A stretch of 64,000 nucleotides of DNA from Planctomycetota bacterium (GTDB lineage Bacteria > Planctomycetota > B15-G4 > SIAN01): the NCBI GenBank assembly GCA_031409275.1, contig JANNXA010000009.1, positions 64,001-128,000 on the forward strand. The letters are read 5' to 3'. Below are positions 20,398-54,117 of this stretch, one piece after another. Every line of letters starts with the position of its first letter. Positions within the stretch are counted from its first letter, which is position 1. A model generated the notes under the pieces. The model saw nothing but the letters and a program-made list of their open reading frames with translations, did no database searches and had not been told where the DNA came from. The position numbers were made by a program, and so were the translations under genes.

Positions 20398-22359
20398 CTA
20401 CTTCGCGATCCGGCAGAACGGCGATGCGGGCAGTCCGGCGCCGTTGAAGAGGTTGGGCGCGCAGGTGTCGGCGAAGCCGAAGCGGACGTCCGTCGGCTGC
20501 GCGACCGCGACGCAACGCACGACCACCGTCTCGCCATCGACGGTCGCCTGCGCGGGATGCCACACCCCATCGGCACCGCACAGCTCGAAGTCGGTCAACG
20601 CGCCGTCCTTGGCGACGAGCCCGGCGGCGTGGGTGAAGCGGACGCGGACGGCATCGCGCTCGACGGCGTGCGAGGCGTAGAGCGGGCCGCTCCATTCGCC
20701 GACGTCGCGCTTGTAGGTCTGGCTCAGCGCCCACAGCGCGAGGCGACGCCCAACCTCCTGTTTGTTGGCCGGGTGGATGTTGCCACCGTCGCCGATGTCC
20801 ATCGTCACCGCCATGCCGGTGTTGGGCACGGCGAGCGTCTCGAACTGCGCCTGGCGCAGCTCCGCCGTGGCGCGGCGCGAGCCGTCGTAGTTGTAGGGCG
20901 CGATCTGCACGAAGAGGAACGGGAAGGCGGGACGCTCGAACTGGGCGCGCCAGTCGGCGATCAGCCCCTTCATCAGCGCGAGGTACTCGGTCGGTAGCCC
21001 GCGATTGCTCTCCCCCTGGTACCAGAGCGCGCCACGGATGCCGAAGGGGACAATCGGCGCCACGAGGCCGTTCCACAGCACCGACGCGACGTTGGGGTGG
21101 AGCTGGGCGCCGGCATTGGGCAGCGGCGGCAGGCCATCGGCCGCGCAGCCGAGCCGGCGCTTCCAGGGGCCGGAGAGCGTGACGCTCGCGACCGCCTTTC
21201 CATCGCGGTGCGCCGCGACGGTCACCCCCTCCTTGCCGACGCCCGCGATGCCACCACCGCCGCCGGTGTCGACGACGCGCACCGCCAGGACGTGGCGAGC
21301 CGGCGTCGTCAGCTGCGCGGGAATCGTGTAGCTGCGCGCTTCGTTCCAGCGACCGTGCACCTCGACGCCGCCGATCTTCTGGCCATCGAAGAAGACCTGA
21401 TCCATGTCGTCGATGGCGCCGAGCGACAACACGAGCTCCTGACCCACGAACTCGTGCGGCAGCGTCTCGAACGTCCGGCGATACCACACCGAGCCGTCGA
21501 CGTTCTCCATCCCCACGAACGCGTCAGGGACGGCCACGTCGCTCCAGCCCGAGTCATTGAATCCGGGCGCTGCCCAGCCGTTCTTCGCGCCGAGGTCCTT
21601 CTCGTCGAGCGCCGCCCAATAGCCGGCCCATGCGTTCGCCACGGCGTCGTTGCCGCCTTTCGCTGCAGCCGCCTCGCTCGCGACCCAATCGAGCTCCGGC
21701 TGCAGGCGCGGGAACGTGGCGAGCGCTTCGCGTCGCATCCACGCCTGCGCCACGGTTCCGCCCCAGTTGACGCCGATCAGCCCGACCGGCACGCCGAGCT
21801 CGCGACGCAGTTCTCGCGCGAAGAACCAGCCGACGCAGCTGAAGCCATTCACGCTCTCGGGAGTCGCCGGCATCCAGCTCGCCTCGCAATCGGCCAGCGG
21901 AGCCGCAGCGACGACGTTCGGCACGTCGAACAACCGCACCTGCGGATCGCTCGCCGCCGCGCGTTCTTCTTCAGCGTTGGCGACACCGCCGTAGGCGAAC
22001 GCCCACTCCATGTTCGACTGACCGCCGCACAGCCACACTTCGCCGACCAGCACGTCCTCGAGCACCAGCGTGTTCTTGCCGGTGACGGTGATCTGGCTGC
22101 CCTGCTCGCTCGCCTTCGGGGTCTTGAGCAGCGTCTTGAAGCGGCCATCGGCTCCGGCCGTCGTCTTCGCCGATTCGCCCCAGCTCGCCTTCACGGTCAC
22201 CGCTTCGCCCGGATCGGCCCACCCCCAGATCGCCACCTCGCTCTTCTCCTGCACCACCATGTGCGAGCCGAGGATGTGGGGCAGCCGGACGTCGGCCACG
22301 GCGAGCGGCGCCGAGAACGCAAGGGCGGAAGGAAGCAGCAACGCGCGCGGGTGGACCAT
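20398..22359 (-). CDS. Sialate O-acetylesterase (SASA) family protein
   Basis: Motifs GEVWLCGGQSNME, WGGT, WYQGESN and NIHPANKQEVGRRLA, with a signal peptide and an inserted sugar-binding domain. Confidence 0.9.
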   Translation of the reverse strand: MVHPRALLLPSALAFSAPLAVADVRLPHILGSHMVVQEKSEVAIWGWADPGEAVTVKASWGESAKTTAGADGRFKTLLKTPKASEQGSQITVTGKNTLVLEDVLVGEVWLCGGQSNMEWAFAYGGVANAEEERAAASDPQVRLFDVPNVVAAAPLADCEASWMPATPESVNGFSCVGWFFARELRRELGVPVGLIGVNWGGTVAQAWMRREALATFPRLQPELDWVASEAAAAKGGNDAVANAWAGYWAALDEKDLGAKNGWAAPGFNDSGWSDVAVPDAFVGMENVDGSVWYRRTFETLPHEFVGQELVLSLGAIDDMDQVFFDGQKIGGVEVHGRWNEARSYTIPAQLTTPARHVLAVRVVDTGGGGGIAGVGKEGVTVAAHRDGKAVASVTLSGPWKRRLGCAADGLPPLPNAGAQLHPNVASVLWNGLVAPIVPFGIRGALWYQGESNRGLPTEYLALMKGLIADWRAQFERPAFPFLFVQIAPYNYDGSRRATAELRQAQFETLAVPNTGMAVTMDIGDGGNIHPANKQEVGRRLALWALSQTYKRDVGEWSGPLYASHAVERDAVRVRFTHAAGLVAKDGALTDFELCGADGVWHPAQATVDGETVVVRCVAVAQPTDVRFGFADTCAPNLFNGAGLPASPFCRIAK

Positions 22360-22470
22360 TTCGCTTCTCCTGCGAAGACCATCGGTTCACCAAGGTTGCC
22401 CGCGCGCGCCCGCGATCGCCAGCGCTCGATCGAACGCGCTTGGCGGGTCGCACCCAGCTTCGGGCGGCGG

Positions 22471-23514
22471 CTACTTCACGGCGGCTTGCTTGAACCGCTT
22501 CGTGAGCGTCGTCGCGGAGGTCATTCGATCGAGCAGCTCGGGGGCTGCGACGTCCGGCAGGTAGAGCGCGATCGCGGGTGCCGCGGCGATCCCGATCGAC
22601 TGCGCCAGCGTCGCGTGGTCCGCCTCGGCGCGGTCGAGGCGAAGCAGCGTCCAGCCCGAGGCCGCCTTGGCGGCATCGGCCGAGCAGAGGACCTCCTTCT
22701 CGAACTTGCGCGCGGCCGCAACTTCGGCCTTCGCCTTGGCGTCGTCCCCTTCGCGCGTCTCGCGGCCGACGTAGACCGCGACTGGAGTCCCCGACTTGCG
22801 TGCCTGCTCGAGCTCGTCACAGGTCACGCGCCGATCACTGCCGCCGCCGGTCGCGCGTACGGTCGCTCCGACGAACGGCACCAGGGTCCTGGGATGGGCG
22901 CGATCCCACGCATCAGCGTGCTTGGTCAGCCAGCGCACCAACTGCTTGGGCTGATGAGCGTCGGCATCGGACGCGCGCTCGATCACCTTGCCGTCGCTGG
23001 CGACGACGAAGACCTGGGCCGACGGGTCATCACTAGCCCGCTTTATTCATGAGCCCCGTAGCGAGGCGACGGGATGTTGGCGCAGGACGAGGAGGGAAAT
23101 CGCGGCTCCGACGATGCGGGTCTGCTGACCCGCTGAGGAAGGAACGCGGTTTTCCGACGATGTCATGCGCCGACAGACCGAGCCGCAGCAGGGACTCGTG
23201 AACAAGGCGGGCGAGTGCCGCCGTGCTGTTGGGTCCACGGGATGACCTTGCCGTTCAGTCCGTCGTAGAGCCACTCCACCGGCTCGAAACGCAGCGCGAT
23301 CTTCGCGAAGTCGGCGTCGGCCTGGACTTGGGTCACGCCAGGTCTTGCAGGTGGCTCATTGCTCGTTGGACCAGGCGGTCGCCACGAGCAGCGCCTTCCC
23401 GCTCTTGCGCGCGGCGACTACGCCATCGTCGAGCGTCTTGTGCCACCCCGGCGGAGCGGCCGCAGGAAGCACCCAACAGAGGAGCGCGAAACCTGAAGCG
23501 AACCACTTCGACAT
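22471..23514 (-). pseudogene. Secreted thioredoxin-fold selenoprotein (UxxC), disrupted by a MITE and a 1-bp frameshift
   Basis: Reads MSKW...WHKTLDDGVVAARKSGKALLVATAWSNEQ-TGA-ATCKTWRD, frameshifts at about 23331, then QVQADADF...HGGT|MITE|SDDPSAQVFVV. The reconstruction is 287 aa. Confidence 0.75.
23036..23212 (-). mobile_element. MITE-like palindromic element, copy 1 (177 bp)
   Basis: Imperfect TIRs GCCCGCTTTATTCATGAG / CTCGTGAACAAGGCGGGC. Inserted at the TA of ACTAGT, with one TA copy altered to GA. Homologous to 52632-52809. Confidence 0.85.
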
Positions 23515-23592
23515 GACGCTCTCCGCGACCTCGCACGCACGCGTCGCCACGACCGCGAACGATCCTACGCGCGTCCTTCTAGACTGCGGCGC

Positions 23593-25749
23593 ATGGTCGT
23601 CGAACGCCGCGTCATCACTACTGCGGTCGCTCTCGTTGCCGCGTTATGCGGCATTGCCTCGCCGCACAACGTGCGCAGCGCTGCCGCCCAAGACGCCACC
23701 GGCGCGGCCAGCCTCGCCGAGCGCGTCAACCACGCCATCGACGCTGGCGTGGCCTGGTTGAAGTCGGTCCAGCGCGACGACGGCCACTTTCCCTGCGACC
23801 ACTGGTCGCAGGACGGATCGACGGCGCTCTGCACGTATGCGTTGCTCAAGTCGGGCGTGCTCGCGAGCGACCCCGCGGTCGTGAAGGCGATGGCCGTGCT
23901 GCACTACGCGCCCTTCGTCAGCACCTACGCGACCGCGGTCCGCATCGCGATGTTCGATGCGCACGGCGGCGCCGATCTCGACGAGCCGATCCGCGGCGCC
24001 GCCAAGTGGCTCGAGGAGCACCAACAGGAGAGCGGCCTCTGGGCCTATCCCGATCGGCAGCAGGACCTCTCCAACACGCAGTACGCGGCGCTCGGGCTGT
24101 GGATCGCGGCGCGTCACGGCTACGAGACGAAGCGTGAGACGTGGGCCAGACTGCTGAAGGAGCTGCTGCGACTTCAGTCCGAGGATGGCGGCTTTGGCTA
24201 CCGCGAGGGCGACGAGACGACCGGCAGCATGACCACCGCCGGCATCGCGATCGTCCACCTCGCCGTCGCCGCGCTCGAAGGCGACTCGCGCTACGGCTCG
24301 ACGCGCCAGAAGGGCAACGCCGCGCTCGAACGCGCCTGGCAGTGGCTGATCGACCGCTTCACGGTCGAGGGCAATCCCAACGGCGCGCGCGTCGTCTCGA
24401 ATGGCAACCATCTCTACTACCTCTTCGGGCTCGAGCGGGTGGCCGCGATCGGCGCGCGCAAGAAGATCGGCGACCACGACTGGTACGCGGAGGGCGCTCG
24501 CCATCTGGTGCGCACCCAAAGACCCGACGGCCAATGGTTCACCCCTGACGCGACGAGCTTCGCGCTGCTGTTCCTGCGCCGCGCCACGTTCACCGGCATG
24601 ACGCATGTCGAGCAGGACGCTCCCGTCGGCGGTCCGATCAGCGGCGAGCCGCAGCGCCCCGGCCCGCTCGCGCCCTTCCTGCGCCGTTGGTTGGTGGCGG
24701 GCCCGCTCGCCGATCCGAAGGACACGCTGCTGGAGGAGGCCTACGCGGGCGAAGCGACGGTCGAGCCGAAGGTGGGCAGTTCATTTCGCGGCAAGAGCTG
24801 GCGCGAGGTGCGCGAGCTCGATGATTTCGTCGGCTTCGGCGTCGACGATCGGCCGGGCGACCGCACGCTCTCCTACGCCTTCACCTGGCTGCACGTCGCT
24901 GAGCCGTTCCGCGGCGGGCTGTGGGTCGGCGCGAACGACGGCGTGGTGGTGCAGCTCGATGGGGCGACGGTCCTGTCGAAGCATGTCCACCAGGAGCTGC
25001 CGCGCGATCGCGTGAACACGCCGATCACGCTGGCACCCGGCATCCATCGCCTGCTGGTCAAAGTCGAGAACGAGCGCGACGACAGCGGCTTCACGCTTCG
25101 TTTCGCCAACGAGGATGGCACCGCCGCGCGACAGGTGAAGCCGTCGCTGAGCAAGAGCGATCCGCAACTCGCCGCCGCGGCTTTGGCGACGCCGGGCCTC
25201 TTCAAGCTCGAAGAGCTCGCGACGTTGCTGCCGCTGCTGCCGCGCCGATCGATCGACTTCAAATCGGCGAAGGACCTCGAGCTGCTGGCGTTCGATCGCA
25301 ACGGCGTATCGGGCGACGACCGCTACCCGCAATGGCTGGACGTCCCCGCGAAGAAGCCGGGCTCTCCCCACCCCGGCGCGCGCGGCGTGCTCGCGCTCCA
25401 CCCCATCACCGAGAAGGTCGCCACCCGACTGATCTTCCGTGTCGCGGTGCCGGCCGGCGCTCCGAAGCTCAAGCTCCGCGTCAGCTCGGAAGCGTACGGC
25501 GACGCGGCGCGCGCCGACTTCATCCTGCGCGTCGGCCTCTTCGGCGAGGCGCTCGAGTGGTTGCACGAGTCGACCATCGGCCCTTCGCCGACTCCATCCG
25601 CACCGGCCGCGAGCGGCTGGCGCGACGTCGAGATCGACCTCTCCGCGCATGCCGGCAGCGAACGGCTGGTCGTGATCGAGTGCGACGCCGGTGGCGGCGC
25701 ACCATGGAGTTTCGAGCACGCCTTCTTCGACGAGATCTCGCTGCGATGA
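23593..25749 (+). CDS. Prenyltransferase/squalene-cyclase-repeat secreted protein with C-terminal beta-sandwich domains
   Basis: QW-like repeats (VQRDDGHF, QQESGLW, QSEDGGFGY, QRPDGQW), DLSNTQYA and YYLFGLERV, plus a PA14-like segment. TAGACT lies 7 nt before the ATG. Confidence 0.75.
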   Translation: MVVERRVITTAVALVAALCGIASPHNVRSAAAQDATGAASLAERVNHAIDAGVAWLKSVQRDDGHFPCDHWSQDGSTALCTYALLKSGVLASDPAVVKAMAVLHYAPFVSTYATAVRIAMFDAHGGADLDEPIRGAAKWLEEHQQESGLWAYPDRQQDLSNTQYAALGLWIAARHGYETKRETWARLLKELLRLQSEDGGFGYREGDETTGSMTTAGIAIVHLAVAALEGDSRYGSTRQKGNAALERAWQWLIDRFTVEGNPNGARVVSNGNHLYYLFGLERVAAIGARKKIGDHDWYAEGARHLVRTQRPDGQWFTPDATSFALLFLRRATFTGMTHVEQDAPVGGPISGEPQRPGPLAPFLRRWLVAGPLADPKDTLLEEAYAGEATVEPKVGSSFRGKSWREVRELDDFVGFGVDDRPGDRTLSYAFTWLHVAEPFRGGLWVGANDGVVVQLDGATVLSKHVHQELPRDRVNTPITLAPGIHRLLVKVENERDDSGFTLRFANEDGTAARQVKPSLSKSDPQLAAAALATPGLFKLEELATLLPLLPRRSIDFKSAKDLELLAFDRNGVSGDDRYPQWLDVPAKKPGSPHPGARGVLALHPITEKVATRLIFRVAVPAGAPKLKLRVSSEAYGDAARADFILRVGLFGEALEWLHESTIGPSPTPSAPAASGWRDVEIDLSAHAGSERLVVIECDAGGGAPWSFEHAFFDEISLR

Positions 25750-52631: not shown

Positions 52632-52809
52632 CCCCGTCTGATTCACGAAACCCCTGCTGCGGCTCGGTCTGCCGGCGCATGACTTCGTCGGAAAACCGCG
52701 TTCCTTCCTCAGCGGGTCAGCCAACCCGCATCGTCGGAACCGCGATTTCCCTCCTCGTCATGCACCGACATCCCGTCGCCTCGCGACGGGGATCGAGAAT
52801 CAAACGGGC
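52632..52809 (+). mobile_element. MITE-like palindromic element, copy 2 (178 bp)
   Basis: Flanked by TA at 52630-31 and 52810-11, with TIRs CCCGTCTGATTC / GAATCAAACGGG. The interior is nearly identical to the reverse complement of 23036-23212. Confidence 0.85.
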
Positions 52810-53004
52810 TAATCTCCGCCGCCGCTTGGAACGACGGTCGTCACGTCCGCGCCCAACGAGGTGGGAACATCCGGGGTGCCGCAGGCGTACGAAACGTCCG
52901 ATCCAGACGATCGCACGGCATCGGTGCGCCGCGAGATCGAGATCGACGAATCACAAGCACCCAAGGACAAGGCGGCGTGCGCCGTCATGCAGATGGAGGT
53001 GGAG

Positions 53005-54117
53005 ATGCGCTGTTGGCTCCTCGTCGCGGGAGCAGTCGTGCTGCTTGGAGGCGGACTCCGGGCACAGGACACCCTCGACAAGATTCAGAAAGAGACGAAC
53101 CTCGTCCTGGCGCGCGGCGCCAAGGCGGGTCCGGACCTCGCCGAGATCGAGCGCCTGCTCGGTCGCGCGCGGGACCTCTCGATCGACCTCAAGGCCGACG
53201 ACGAGGGGTTGCGGGCGAGCTTGCTGGTGCTCGACCTGTCGAGCTTCCTTGCGGAGGAGCGACAGAGCGAGCTCTTCACCGAGGTCTTCGACTCGCTGAT
53301 CGAGAACCACCTGCAGAGCGATGGGCTGGCGCAGGTCGTTCTGATGCGGCTGGCCAACCCTGCTCCCCACCTCGCGAAGGCGGCGGGCGAGTACTTCGAC
53401 TGGATCGCGCGCGATTCGAAGTCGAAGCCGGTGCAGGCGGCGTGCAAGTACACCCGTCTCACCAAGGACGCGGCAGCGGCCGGGAATGTCGCCGACGTGA
53501 AGAAGATGGTGGCGAAGCTCGAGGCGCTGAAGGCGGAGATCGGCAAGGAGCCGGCCGCGTTCGGTCAGACCTACGGGCAGATGCTCGACGAGTTGATCGA
53601 GTCGCTGAAGATCGTCGGGACGCCGGCCCCTGAAATCGAGGGCAAGGACCTCGACGGCGTCGCGTTCAAGCTCTCCGACTATCACGGCAAGGTCGTGCTG
53701 CTCGACTTCTGGGGCTATTGGTGAGGCCCTTGCCGGGGCATGTTCCCGCACGAGCGGTCGCTCGTGGCACGACTGAAGGATGATCCTTTCGCTCTGGTCG
53801 GAGTGAACAGCGACGAGAACTTCGAGGAGCTGAAGAAGAAGGAGTACCTCGAAGAGAAGATCACTTGGCGCAGCTTCCAGAACAGCGCGGCGACGCCGCC
53901 GATCTCGGAGCAGTGGAAGGTGAGTGGCTGGCCCACGCTCTACCTCGTCGACGCCGAAGGCAAGCTGCGCAAGAAGTGGATCGGCAGCCCGAGCGAAGCG
54001 GAGCTCGACGCGGCGATTGATGGCCTCGTGGCCGAAGCCACAGCGGGCAAAGGCAAGGCCGCTCCCGCCAAGCCCGTGAAGAAGGCCGATCCGAAGAAGA
54101 GCGGCGCTCCGAACTGA
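53005..54117 (+). CDS. Secreted TlpA/ResA-like thioredoxin selenoprotein (Sec at residue 240)
   Basis: GKVVLLDFWGYW-TGA-GPCRGMFPHERSLV is in frame. Joining the two track ORFs gives one 370-aa protein with a UGPC active site and GWPT cis-Pro loop. Confidence 0.9.
53749..53766 (+). promoter_or_regulatory. Candidate bacterial SECIS hairpin
   Basis: CACGAGC-GGTC-GCTCGTG. The G-starting loop lies 31 nt after the UGA. Confidence 0.6.

Follow-up and report, generated by a model that had tools for sequence, protein, structure and literature searches.

A Broken Planctomycetota Gene Points to an Apparently Uncatalogued Family of Predicted Exported Selenoproteins with Two Thioredoxin Domains

Within the window, a stretch of 64,000 nucleotides from a Planctomycetota bacterium, we examined a broken gene on the minus strand. 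On balance, we read its intact relatives as predicted exported selenocysteine (Sec) proteins with two thioredoxin domains, likely envelope dithiol reductases or isomerases. From the codon patterns described below, the in-frame TGA that these genes share almost certainly encodes Sec, and the window copy is very probably a recent pseudogene. The family is apparently uncatalogued, Sec-dominant, and of a known kind, since exported Thioredoxin_7-type (Trx7) selenoproteins are known and tandem Trx7 proteins are common in the phylum. An earlier note on this DNA had spoken of an unfamiliar type, which is correct for the family but not for its general kind. No type of selenoprotein is commoner than a thioredoxin fold with UxxC, and the window copy is very probably dead, so that the surprise is limited. 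The bacterial selenoprotein catalogue would nonetheless gain a Sec-dominant family and a sister subfamily.

The gene is interrupted by one surplus base and by a 179-bp insert (Table 1). When both are removed, the three pieces form the 287-residue reading frame that the earlier note had reconstructed, and this frame matches an intact 294-aa orthologue that has neither interruption. We found the orthologue by comparing the 3' piece with 60 relatives, of which one genome of the same genus (G003) clearly matched. Its gene (L011) is one frame of 294 codons with a single TGA, in NEQ-U-AS-C; over 265 codons, the pieces in the window share 71% identity with it, at a dN/dS of 0.28. In the starting frame of the window copy, a hydrophobic leader is followed by W25...A.KSGK.LLV, T.W, and then the TGA, in agreement with the signal peptide, thioredoxin-like start, and TGA at the first Cys position of EQ-U-AT-C (codon 53) described earlier. 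A weak match in a further genome (G035, E 4.6e-4) was rejected as a relative, as inspection of the alignment revealed no homologue and the profile search also lacked it. No intact paralogue was found in the source genome, and an Rfam search over 22300-23700 returned nothing at E 1.

Table 1. Features of the broken gene and its surroundings, in window coordinates
Feature	Position	Strand	Basis or remark
Disrupted gene, whole	ATG 23514 to TAG 22471	minus	Three pieces, 61 + 39 + 187 codons = 287
5' piece, 61 codons: from ATG through predicted signal peptide into thioredoxin domain 1, UxxC included	23332..23514	minus	Thioredoxin_7, E 0.0012; alignable to intact orthologue
Predicted signal peptide, about residues 1-20, ending A-A-A	23455..23514	minus	Read from the letters; similar hydrophobic A-x-A leaders in homologues
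In-frame TGA, codon 53, inferred selenocysteine, in EQ-U-AT-C	23356..23358	minus	TGA in 43/52 and Cys in 9/52 related loci
Resolving Cys codon	23349-23347	minus	Second Cys in 52/52 loci
Damaged SECIS of the window copy	23325..23344	minus	Changes confined to the 3' arm; GACCTGG (5' arm, 23344-23338) and CGTGA (loop, 23337-23333) preserved
CCC run (GGG on the plus strand) with one surplus base, +1 frameshift	23330..23332	minus	Orthologue and homologues in frame at the run
Middle piece, 39 codons, out of frame, family signature EWLYDGLNGKVIPWT..GGT	23214..23330	minus	E 2.7e-16 to family profile
MITE-like repeat of 179 bp between CT and AG, its ends forming imperfect terminal inverted repeats	23035..23213		Genome BLAST
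3' piece, 187 codons and TAG: remainder of domain 1, with the DDPS loop and final strands, then all of thioredoxin domain 2, without CxxC	22471..23034	minus	67% to G003

To the question of what homologues carry at residue 53, the related loci gave a uniform answer. When all were scored at the first CxxC position, 43 of 52 had TGA and nine had Cys, with nothing else in any locus (TAA, TAG, and TGG, 0/52), and the Sec reading stands. The 52 loci consist of 18 from genomes (18 of 37 pattern matches confirmed) and 34 from metagenomes (34 of 132); 48 are distinct, as L013 is identical to the query and the 45-base context of four loci duplicates that of another. Each of the 52 aligned as one HSP without a frameshift, and 17 of the 18 genome loci are Planctomycetota by record title. 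We scanned 400 genomes from the phylum and obtained 22 matches of near-full length, spread over 21 genomes; TGA is present in 18 and absent from four. All ten newly fetched loci carried TGA: seven have the tandem architecture, two belong to a sister type that ends in a helical domain, and one is truncated. At thresholds of E 1e-30, 1e-10, and 0.001, the family profile retrieved 44, 77, and 114 representatives, respectively, among 1.84 billion; the gene was found in two of 42 genomes of the window's order. L085, marked as having two TGA codons, was rejected as a case of a second Sec, its aligned part holding the codon-54 TGA alone.

The 25 relatives from a protein search fell into two classes, full-length proteins with a CxxC-type motif and fragments of 218-249 aa that mostly start right past the motif. 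Such fragments are labeled 'hypothetical protein' at NCBI (P0002, P0023, P0024). Annotation thus keeps these genes as truncated hypothetical proteins, which renders the catalytic half and the signal peptide invisible. We also observed a sister subfamily (L098, L099; P0089, P0094, P0095, P0098, P0100, P0105, P0108) with the same domain 1 followed by a helical domain. TGA was present in both loci seen as DNA (L098, L099), and some members have a C-terminal C..C motif.

The sequence that follows the TGA has features expected of a SECIS element. The family hairpin takes the form N-ACCUGG / CGUGN / CC(A/G)GGU-N, with its loop 18 nt past the UGA and GACCUGG-CGUGA-CCAGGUC as its intact form. Its folding energy in the L011 orthologue is -24.2 kcal/mol (z -4.28), which none of 200 shuffles equaled or surpassed. 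The bSECIS model of PMC13188914 has a 3-9 nt loop, a 4-16 bp stem, G in the first two loop positions, 16-37 nt spacing, and an MFE of at most -7.5; the orthologue qualifies on all four constraints of the model, with its 5-nt CGUGA loop, 7-bp upper stem, 18-nt spacing, and energy. The same stretch of the window copy reaches -10.3 (z +0.27; 114 of 200 shuffles as good) and does not qualify as a bSECIS. Its hairpin is weak because the surplus C and a CAA codon sit in the 3' arm; at the position of this CAA, all 20 Sec loci with Gln there use CAG. A different hairpin had been pointed out earlier in the window copy (CCTG..GAC-ccaa-GTC-CAGG). It can form, but it is no stabler than shuffled sequences, and we rejected it as the SECIS, since that of the family lies in another register.

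Synonymous codons after the TGA are biased in the way that a SECIS requires. Across 39 non-duplicate Sec loci, Thr in the hairpin is always ACC (30/30), compared to 93 of 304 (31%) elsewhere in the same genes. For Arg in the hairpin, CGT is used in 30 of 39 cases versus 28 of 481 (6%) elsewhere, and CGG in 10 of 10 versus 128 of 481 (27%). At the same positions in the nine Cys loci, ACC fell to 5/9 and CGG to 1/8. These counts come from related sequences, so that p-values derived from them are overstated. Codon usage is the informative test of Sec against Cys forms: pair counts in the SECIS register did not differ between them (p 0.53), and folding energy differed marginally (p 0.064). Four of the 39 Sec loci pair at just 2-3 of the six positions in this register.

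Sec is the rule in this family and Cys the exception. In a tree of 38 near-full-length rows, which is unrooted and omits 14 of the 52 loci as too short, the seven Cys rows need four changes, at least three of them forced by well-supported branches. Repeated change from Sec to Cys is the simplest reading of this unrooted tree, and would amount to several independent switches in genomes that retain the Sec machinery. Such switches offer natural pairs for judging the benefit of Sec to an exported oxidoreductase. One genome holds both Cys and TGA paralogues (L077 and G143:C21:62570-63409).

We compared the family with catalogued selenoproteins. For eight proteins searched against NCBIfam (June 2026), no model came near its cut-off; the best was NF041199, at 12-18.2 bits against 300. 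None of the 119 families in Table 1 of a 2026 review (PMC13188914), which we compared through the names, domain ids, and motifs that the table gives, fits by model, motif, or architecture. The family may fall loosely under generic entries of that table, such as 'thiol:disulfide interchange protein' (PMC13188914). It is absent from the catalogues checked, as the earlier note had surmised in recognizing no described Sec family, and is probably uncatalogued. A published description was not found in the literature searched. The families of Haft and Tolstoy, from 2025, are reportedly included in both the review table and NCBIfam. The main texts of deep-Sep (PMC12013277) and of BSepDB (PMC13326102), as far as they were available, mention neither Planctomycetes nor thioredoxin; the latter database, according to its main text, gathers families already reported. 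PMC4807772 describes Sec machinery, along with a few selenoproteins, in other planctomycetes.

Several known families share parts of this design. Like our family, the Trx7/PDZ proteins of NF041199 have an exported Thioredoxin_7-type N-terminal domain with Sec in CxxC, and they were its best NCBIfam match. However, they carry CxxU and a C-terminal PDZ domain, where the new family has UxxC and a second thioredoxin domain, and the match, obtained with all eight proteins, spans only about 55 residues. An intact NF041199 member in the source genome scored 350.5 against the cut-off of 300. The VPGUxxT families (NF041382 and NF041383) also place Sec first in an exported Trx7-type domain, and the type 2 model has 287 positions. 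In contrast, our proteins lack the VPGU motif, have a different C-terminal part, and scored 13-14 bits in two of eight cases and nothing in the rest (cut-offs 350 and 275), while a VPGUxxT member in the source genome scored 332 against 275.

A further likeness is to DsbD gamma, DsbH, and the UxxC 'thiol:disulfide interchange protein' (PF13098), which share the fold of domain 1 (Z 12-13.5) and UxxC. Domain 2 also resembles DsbD-gamma by sequence, with a residual Cys before the helix in seven of 38 rows. Unlike DsbD, the family has no membrane DsbD domains and has a tandem duplication and its own YDGL..W and DDPS loops. PF13098 matched none of 26 family members at E 0.1. The DsbD equivalog gave about 10 bits against 330 in two of eight proteins, and the TsoB, DsbH, and ResA-TlpA models were unmatched at E 1.

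AlphaFold2, run on a 26-row alignment (pLDDT 83, pTM 0.60), predicts two thioredoxin domains, the first DsbD-gamma/DsbH-like with UxxC and the second without CxxC. In structure comparisons of this model, domain 1 (about residues 22-148) best matched 3f9u, which is DsbD-gamma-like (Z 13.5, rmsd 2.8, 120 aligned), and also matched DsbH 2ju5 and DsbD-gamma 1vrs (Z 12.3). Domain 2 (about 150-290) matched thioredoxins (Z 10.6, rmsd 2.3, 102 aligned) and, by profile, DsbD-gamma (E 7e-6). That a second thioredoxin-like domain would lack CxxC had been anticipated in the earlier note; the modeled fold is that of a thioredoxin, and the motif is absent from all 38 near-full-length rows. Seven of the 38 retain a single Cys at the former resolving position, and 30 have another Cys (173). 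Membership in the Thioredoxin_7 clade (PF13899) is indicated by a score of 32.9 bits for P0001, above the threshold of 27, together with the fold (Z 13.5). Thioredoxin_7 matched 10 of 26 members at E 0.1, most of the others lacking the N terminus.

Two further resemblances concern the arrangement of the domains. PDI-family proteins (PDI, ERp57, ERp44) appeared in the Foldseek list with E values of about 2e-6, and their exported a-b arrangement likewise places a catalytic thioredoxin domain ahead of a non-catalytic one. However, the likeness is one of analogy only, as TM-scores are 0.2-0.3, identity is 9-14%, and PDI is a eukaryotic four-domain protein without Sec. Look-alikes in the ESM Atlas (0.93-0.94) were tandem Thioredoxin_2/7 clusters, which are common in Planctomycetota and serve as a lead only.

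By analogy with these systems, the intact proteins would most likely be envelope dithiol reductases or isomerases that DsbD recharges, domain 2 serving for binding. We draw this from the fold, the motif, and established Dsb/PDI chemistry; a shared fold alone shows no function. Recharging by DsbD is proposed on account of a DsbD-like TGA gene and other exported Sec-thioredoxins in the source genome. In such a scheme, the UGA would be read as Sec through the SelB/bSECIS pathway, and a predicted cleaved signal peptide would direct export of the DsbD-gamma/DsbH-like domain 1 ahead of the non-catalytic domain 2. As in thioredoxins, Sec would attack a substrate disulfide or an oxidized thiol, and the Cys three residues on would resolve the intermediate. 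A DsbD-type membrane protein may then re-reduce the Sec/Cys pair, and domain 2 may, like the b domains of PDI, bind a substrate or partner. Genomic context names no substrate because, among 40 selected neighbor ORFs scanned, none was common to the family.

Within the same Sec family, and with the same pseudogene, the enzyme could instead be devoted to reducing or binding a single small substrate, such as a metal, metalloid, or peroxide, and not to general protein-disulfide catalysis, which we regard as unlikely. T47, W49, C57, W60, Y84-D-G-L, G89, W94, G99, and P105 of domain 1 are identical in all 38 rows, and D104 in 37; leaving aside C57, these residues make for an unusually invariant domain surface. 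In profile alignment, the proline loop of domain 1 is also longer than the canonical Trx7 cis-proline loop and out of register with it. PMC2665069 ties the cis-proline loop to redox potential and substrate contacts and states that the cis-proline excludes metal binding in human thioredoxin. Moreover, this module is also found, with TGA, in front of a helical C-terminal domain. However, the invariant Pro105 may be a plain cis-proline in a longer loop, and metal-resistance or peroxide genes do not recur nearby. Equally speculative is a wider proposal, in which domain 1 would be a dedicated Sec module for one specific substrate, with a remodeled cis-proline loop and an invariant aromatic/acidic pocket, used in two architectures (tandem and helical). 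It would be a client of a Sec-based envelope relay that runs from Sec-DsbD to several exported Sec-thioredoxins in Planctomycetota; we consider this doubtful.

We give less credence still to a family dedicated to cytochrome c maturation or to the DsbA/VKOR pathway. In one clade (cluster c1, nine loci), the gene comes after a SoxA/TsdA-type cytochrome c gene in the same orientation, and genes of the FG-GAP/ASPIC and TPR/weak multiheme kinds are located upstream. Four other loci have a VKOR-DsbA fusion at a distance of two genes, encoded on the opposite strand, and the top structural match, 3f9u, is annotated as cytochrome c biogenesis-related. Yet each neighborhood is limited to related loci and is absent elsewhere, including the window, where the neighbors are a sialate O-acetylesterase-like gene and a prenyltransferase-fold gene; in addition, the ResA/CcmG/TlpA models were unmatched.

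Whichever substrate the intact proteins act on, the window copy itself is very probably dead, and for a short time. We judge the breakage recent because the copy retains 47 of 48 family-conserved positions and because the dN/dS of its pieces is low. The nearest copy of the insert elsewhere in the genome is 98.9% identical to it, which we also counted for recent breakage. Loss of the gene may be tolerated, as the gene appears dispensable in the order and other exported Sec-thioredoxins are intact.

The insert is MITE-like, being short, non-coding, and multi-copy, with inverted ends and flanking CT(A). BLAST against the source genome gave 23 segments (E<=1e-10), of which 18 are longer than 140 bp and 81-100% identical, corresponding to about 20 dispersed copies. 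The repeat folds as a long hairpin, and CT(A) flanks both sides of most copies. A search with the repeat ends for an autonomous transposase partner found no long element bearing both; several copies lie at contig ends. Since the repeat also occurs as head-to-tail pairs and at several contig ends (G000:C37:1-211 and C16:138533-138753), its genomic copy number is probably underestimated. A further copy (89%) is located at window positions 52633-52810, just upstream of another hidden selenoprotein gene described below.

It is very unlikely that the window copy is alive, whether through assembly error, a minority allele, or recoding that yields a product. The frame arithmetic does hold, since the surplus base and the 179 bp of the insert together add 180 and return the 3' piece to the starting frame. 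The insert carries a TGA (23049-23047) in frame with the flanking pieces, so that the path would run from the first TGA through the insert and this second TGA into the 3' piece. However, this path swaps the invariant YDGL..W for unrelated residues and requires a second read-through; moreover, the SECIS is destroyed, and none of the homologues has the frameshift. For these reasons, a programmed frameshift or compensated frame was rejected. Short-read contigs of the public runs X1 and X2 (over 23182-23700) and X3 (over 23182-23560) were identical to the window, with no differences and no gaps, although the three runs belong to one study that is possibly the source of the assembly itself. These contigs span the surplus base and one insert junction; at the other junction, they contain just 29 letters of the insert, too few to count as bridging. 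An intact allele was not seen in contigs of X1-X4, X6, and X11, which drop rare variants.

The genes for Sec incorporation, which the earlier note had made a test of its reading, are present: selA, selB, selC (tRNA-Sec), and selD all exceeded their cut-offs in the source genome (G000), and selD itself contains an in-frame TGA. Among the 18 genomes that carry the family, selA and tRNA-Sec were each detected in 17, and every genome had at least one of the two. Since selA is also present in all four genomes with Cys forms and in 39 of 42 genomes of the window's order, this co-occurrence does not discriminate; the sel genes show that recoding is possible, without specificity for the family. That the TGA is a true stop or a Trp or Cys codon, and the genes split or truncated thioredoxins, is scarcely credible: the 3' fragments are indeed stored in databases as separate 'hypothetical' proteins of 218-244 aa, but all 52 loci have TGA or Cys codons only, a dedicated tRNA-Sec is present, and TGA ends genes normally, that of the L011 orthologue included.

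Among 10 Thioredoxin_7 matches in the source genome, four further genes have TGA at CxxC. Two of the four are the Trx7/PDZ and VPGU members, both of which pass NCBIfam cut-offs; the others encode a DsbD-like protein and another exported tandem-thioredoxin. A crude scan of the genome returned 26 TGA candidates, about 20 of them at redox motifs. The findings lend support to the idea that selenium underlies much of the envelope thiol chemistry of uncultured Planctomycetota.

The second tandem-thioredoxin lies outside the window (L070:665-1447, minus strand, G000:C9). It is intact and exported, with U-GP-C in the first domain and no CxxC in the second, and it is a distant relative of the family (hhalign 96.7%) that passes no NCBIfam cut-off; possibly, it represents another uncatalogued family. 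The DsbD-like membrane protein (L071, G000:C51:106506, minus strand) has its TGA at the C-terminal CxxC (FT-U-IN-C) and scored 112 bits against the DsbD cut-off of 330 and 122 against the TsoB cut-off of 805. The window contains another hidden selenoprotein, with TGA at 53722-53724 on the plus strand in a frame that extends over 52813-54117. This is an exported TlpA/ResA-like protein of a known kind, with W-U-GP-C, and has three close relatives elsewhere in the genome. Lastly, a DsbH-like Trx7 gene at G000:C18:7319-7573 (minus strand) has an in-frame TAG and a shortened N terminus, and is probably another broken thioredoxin.
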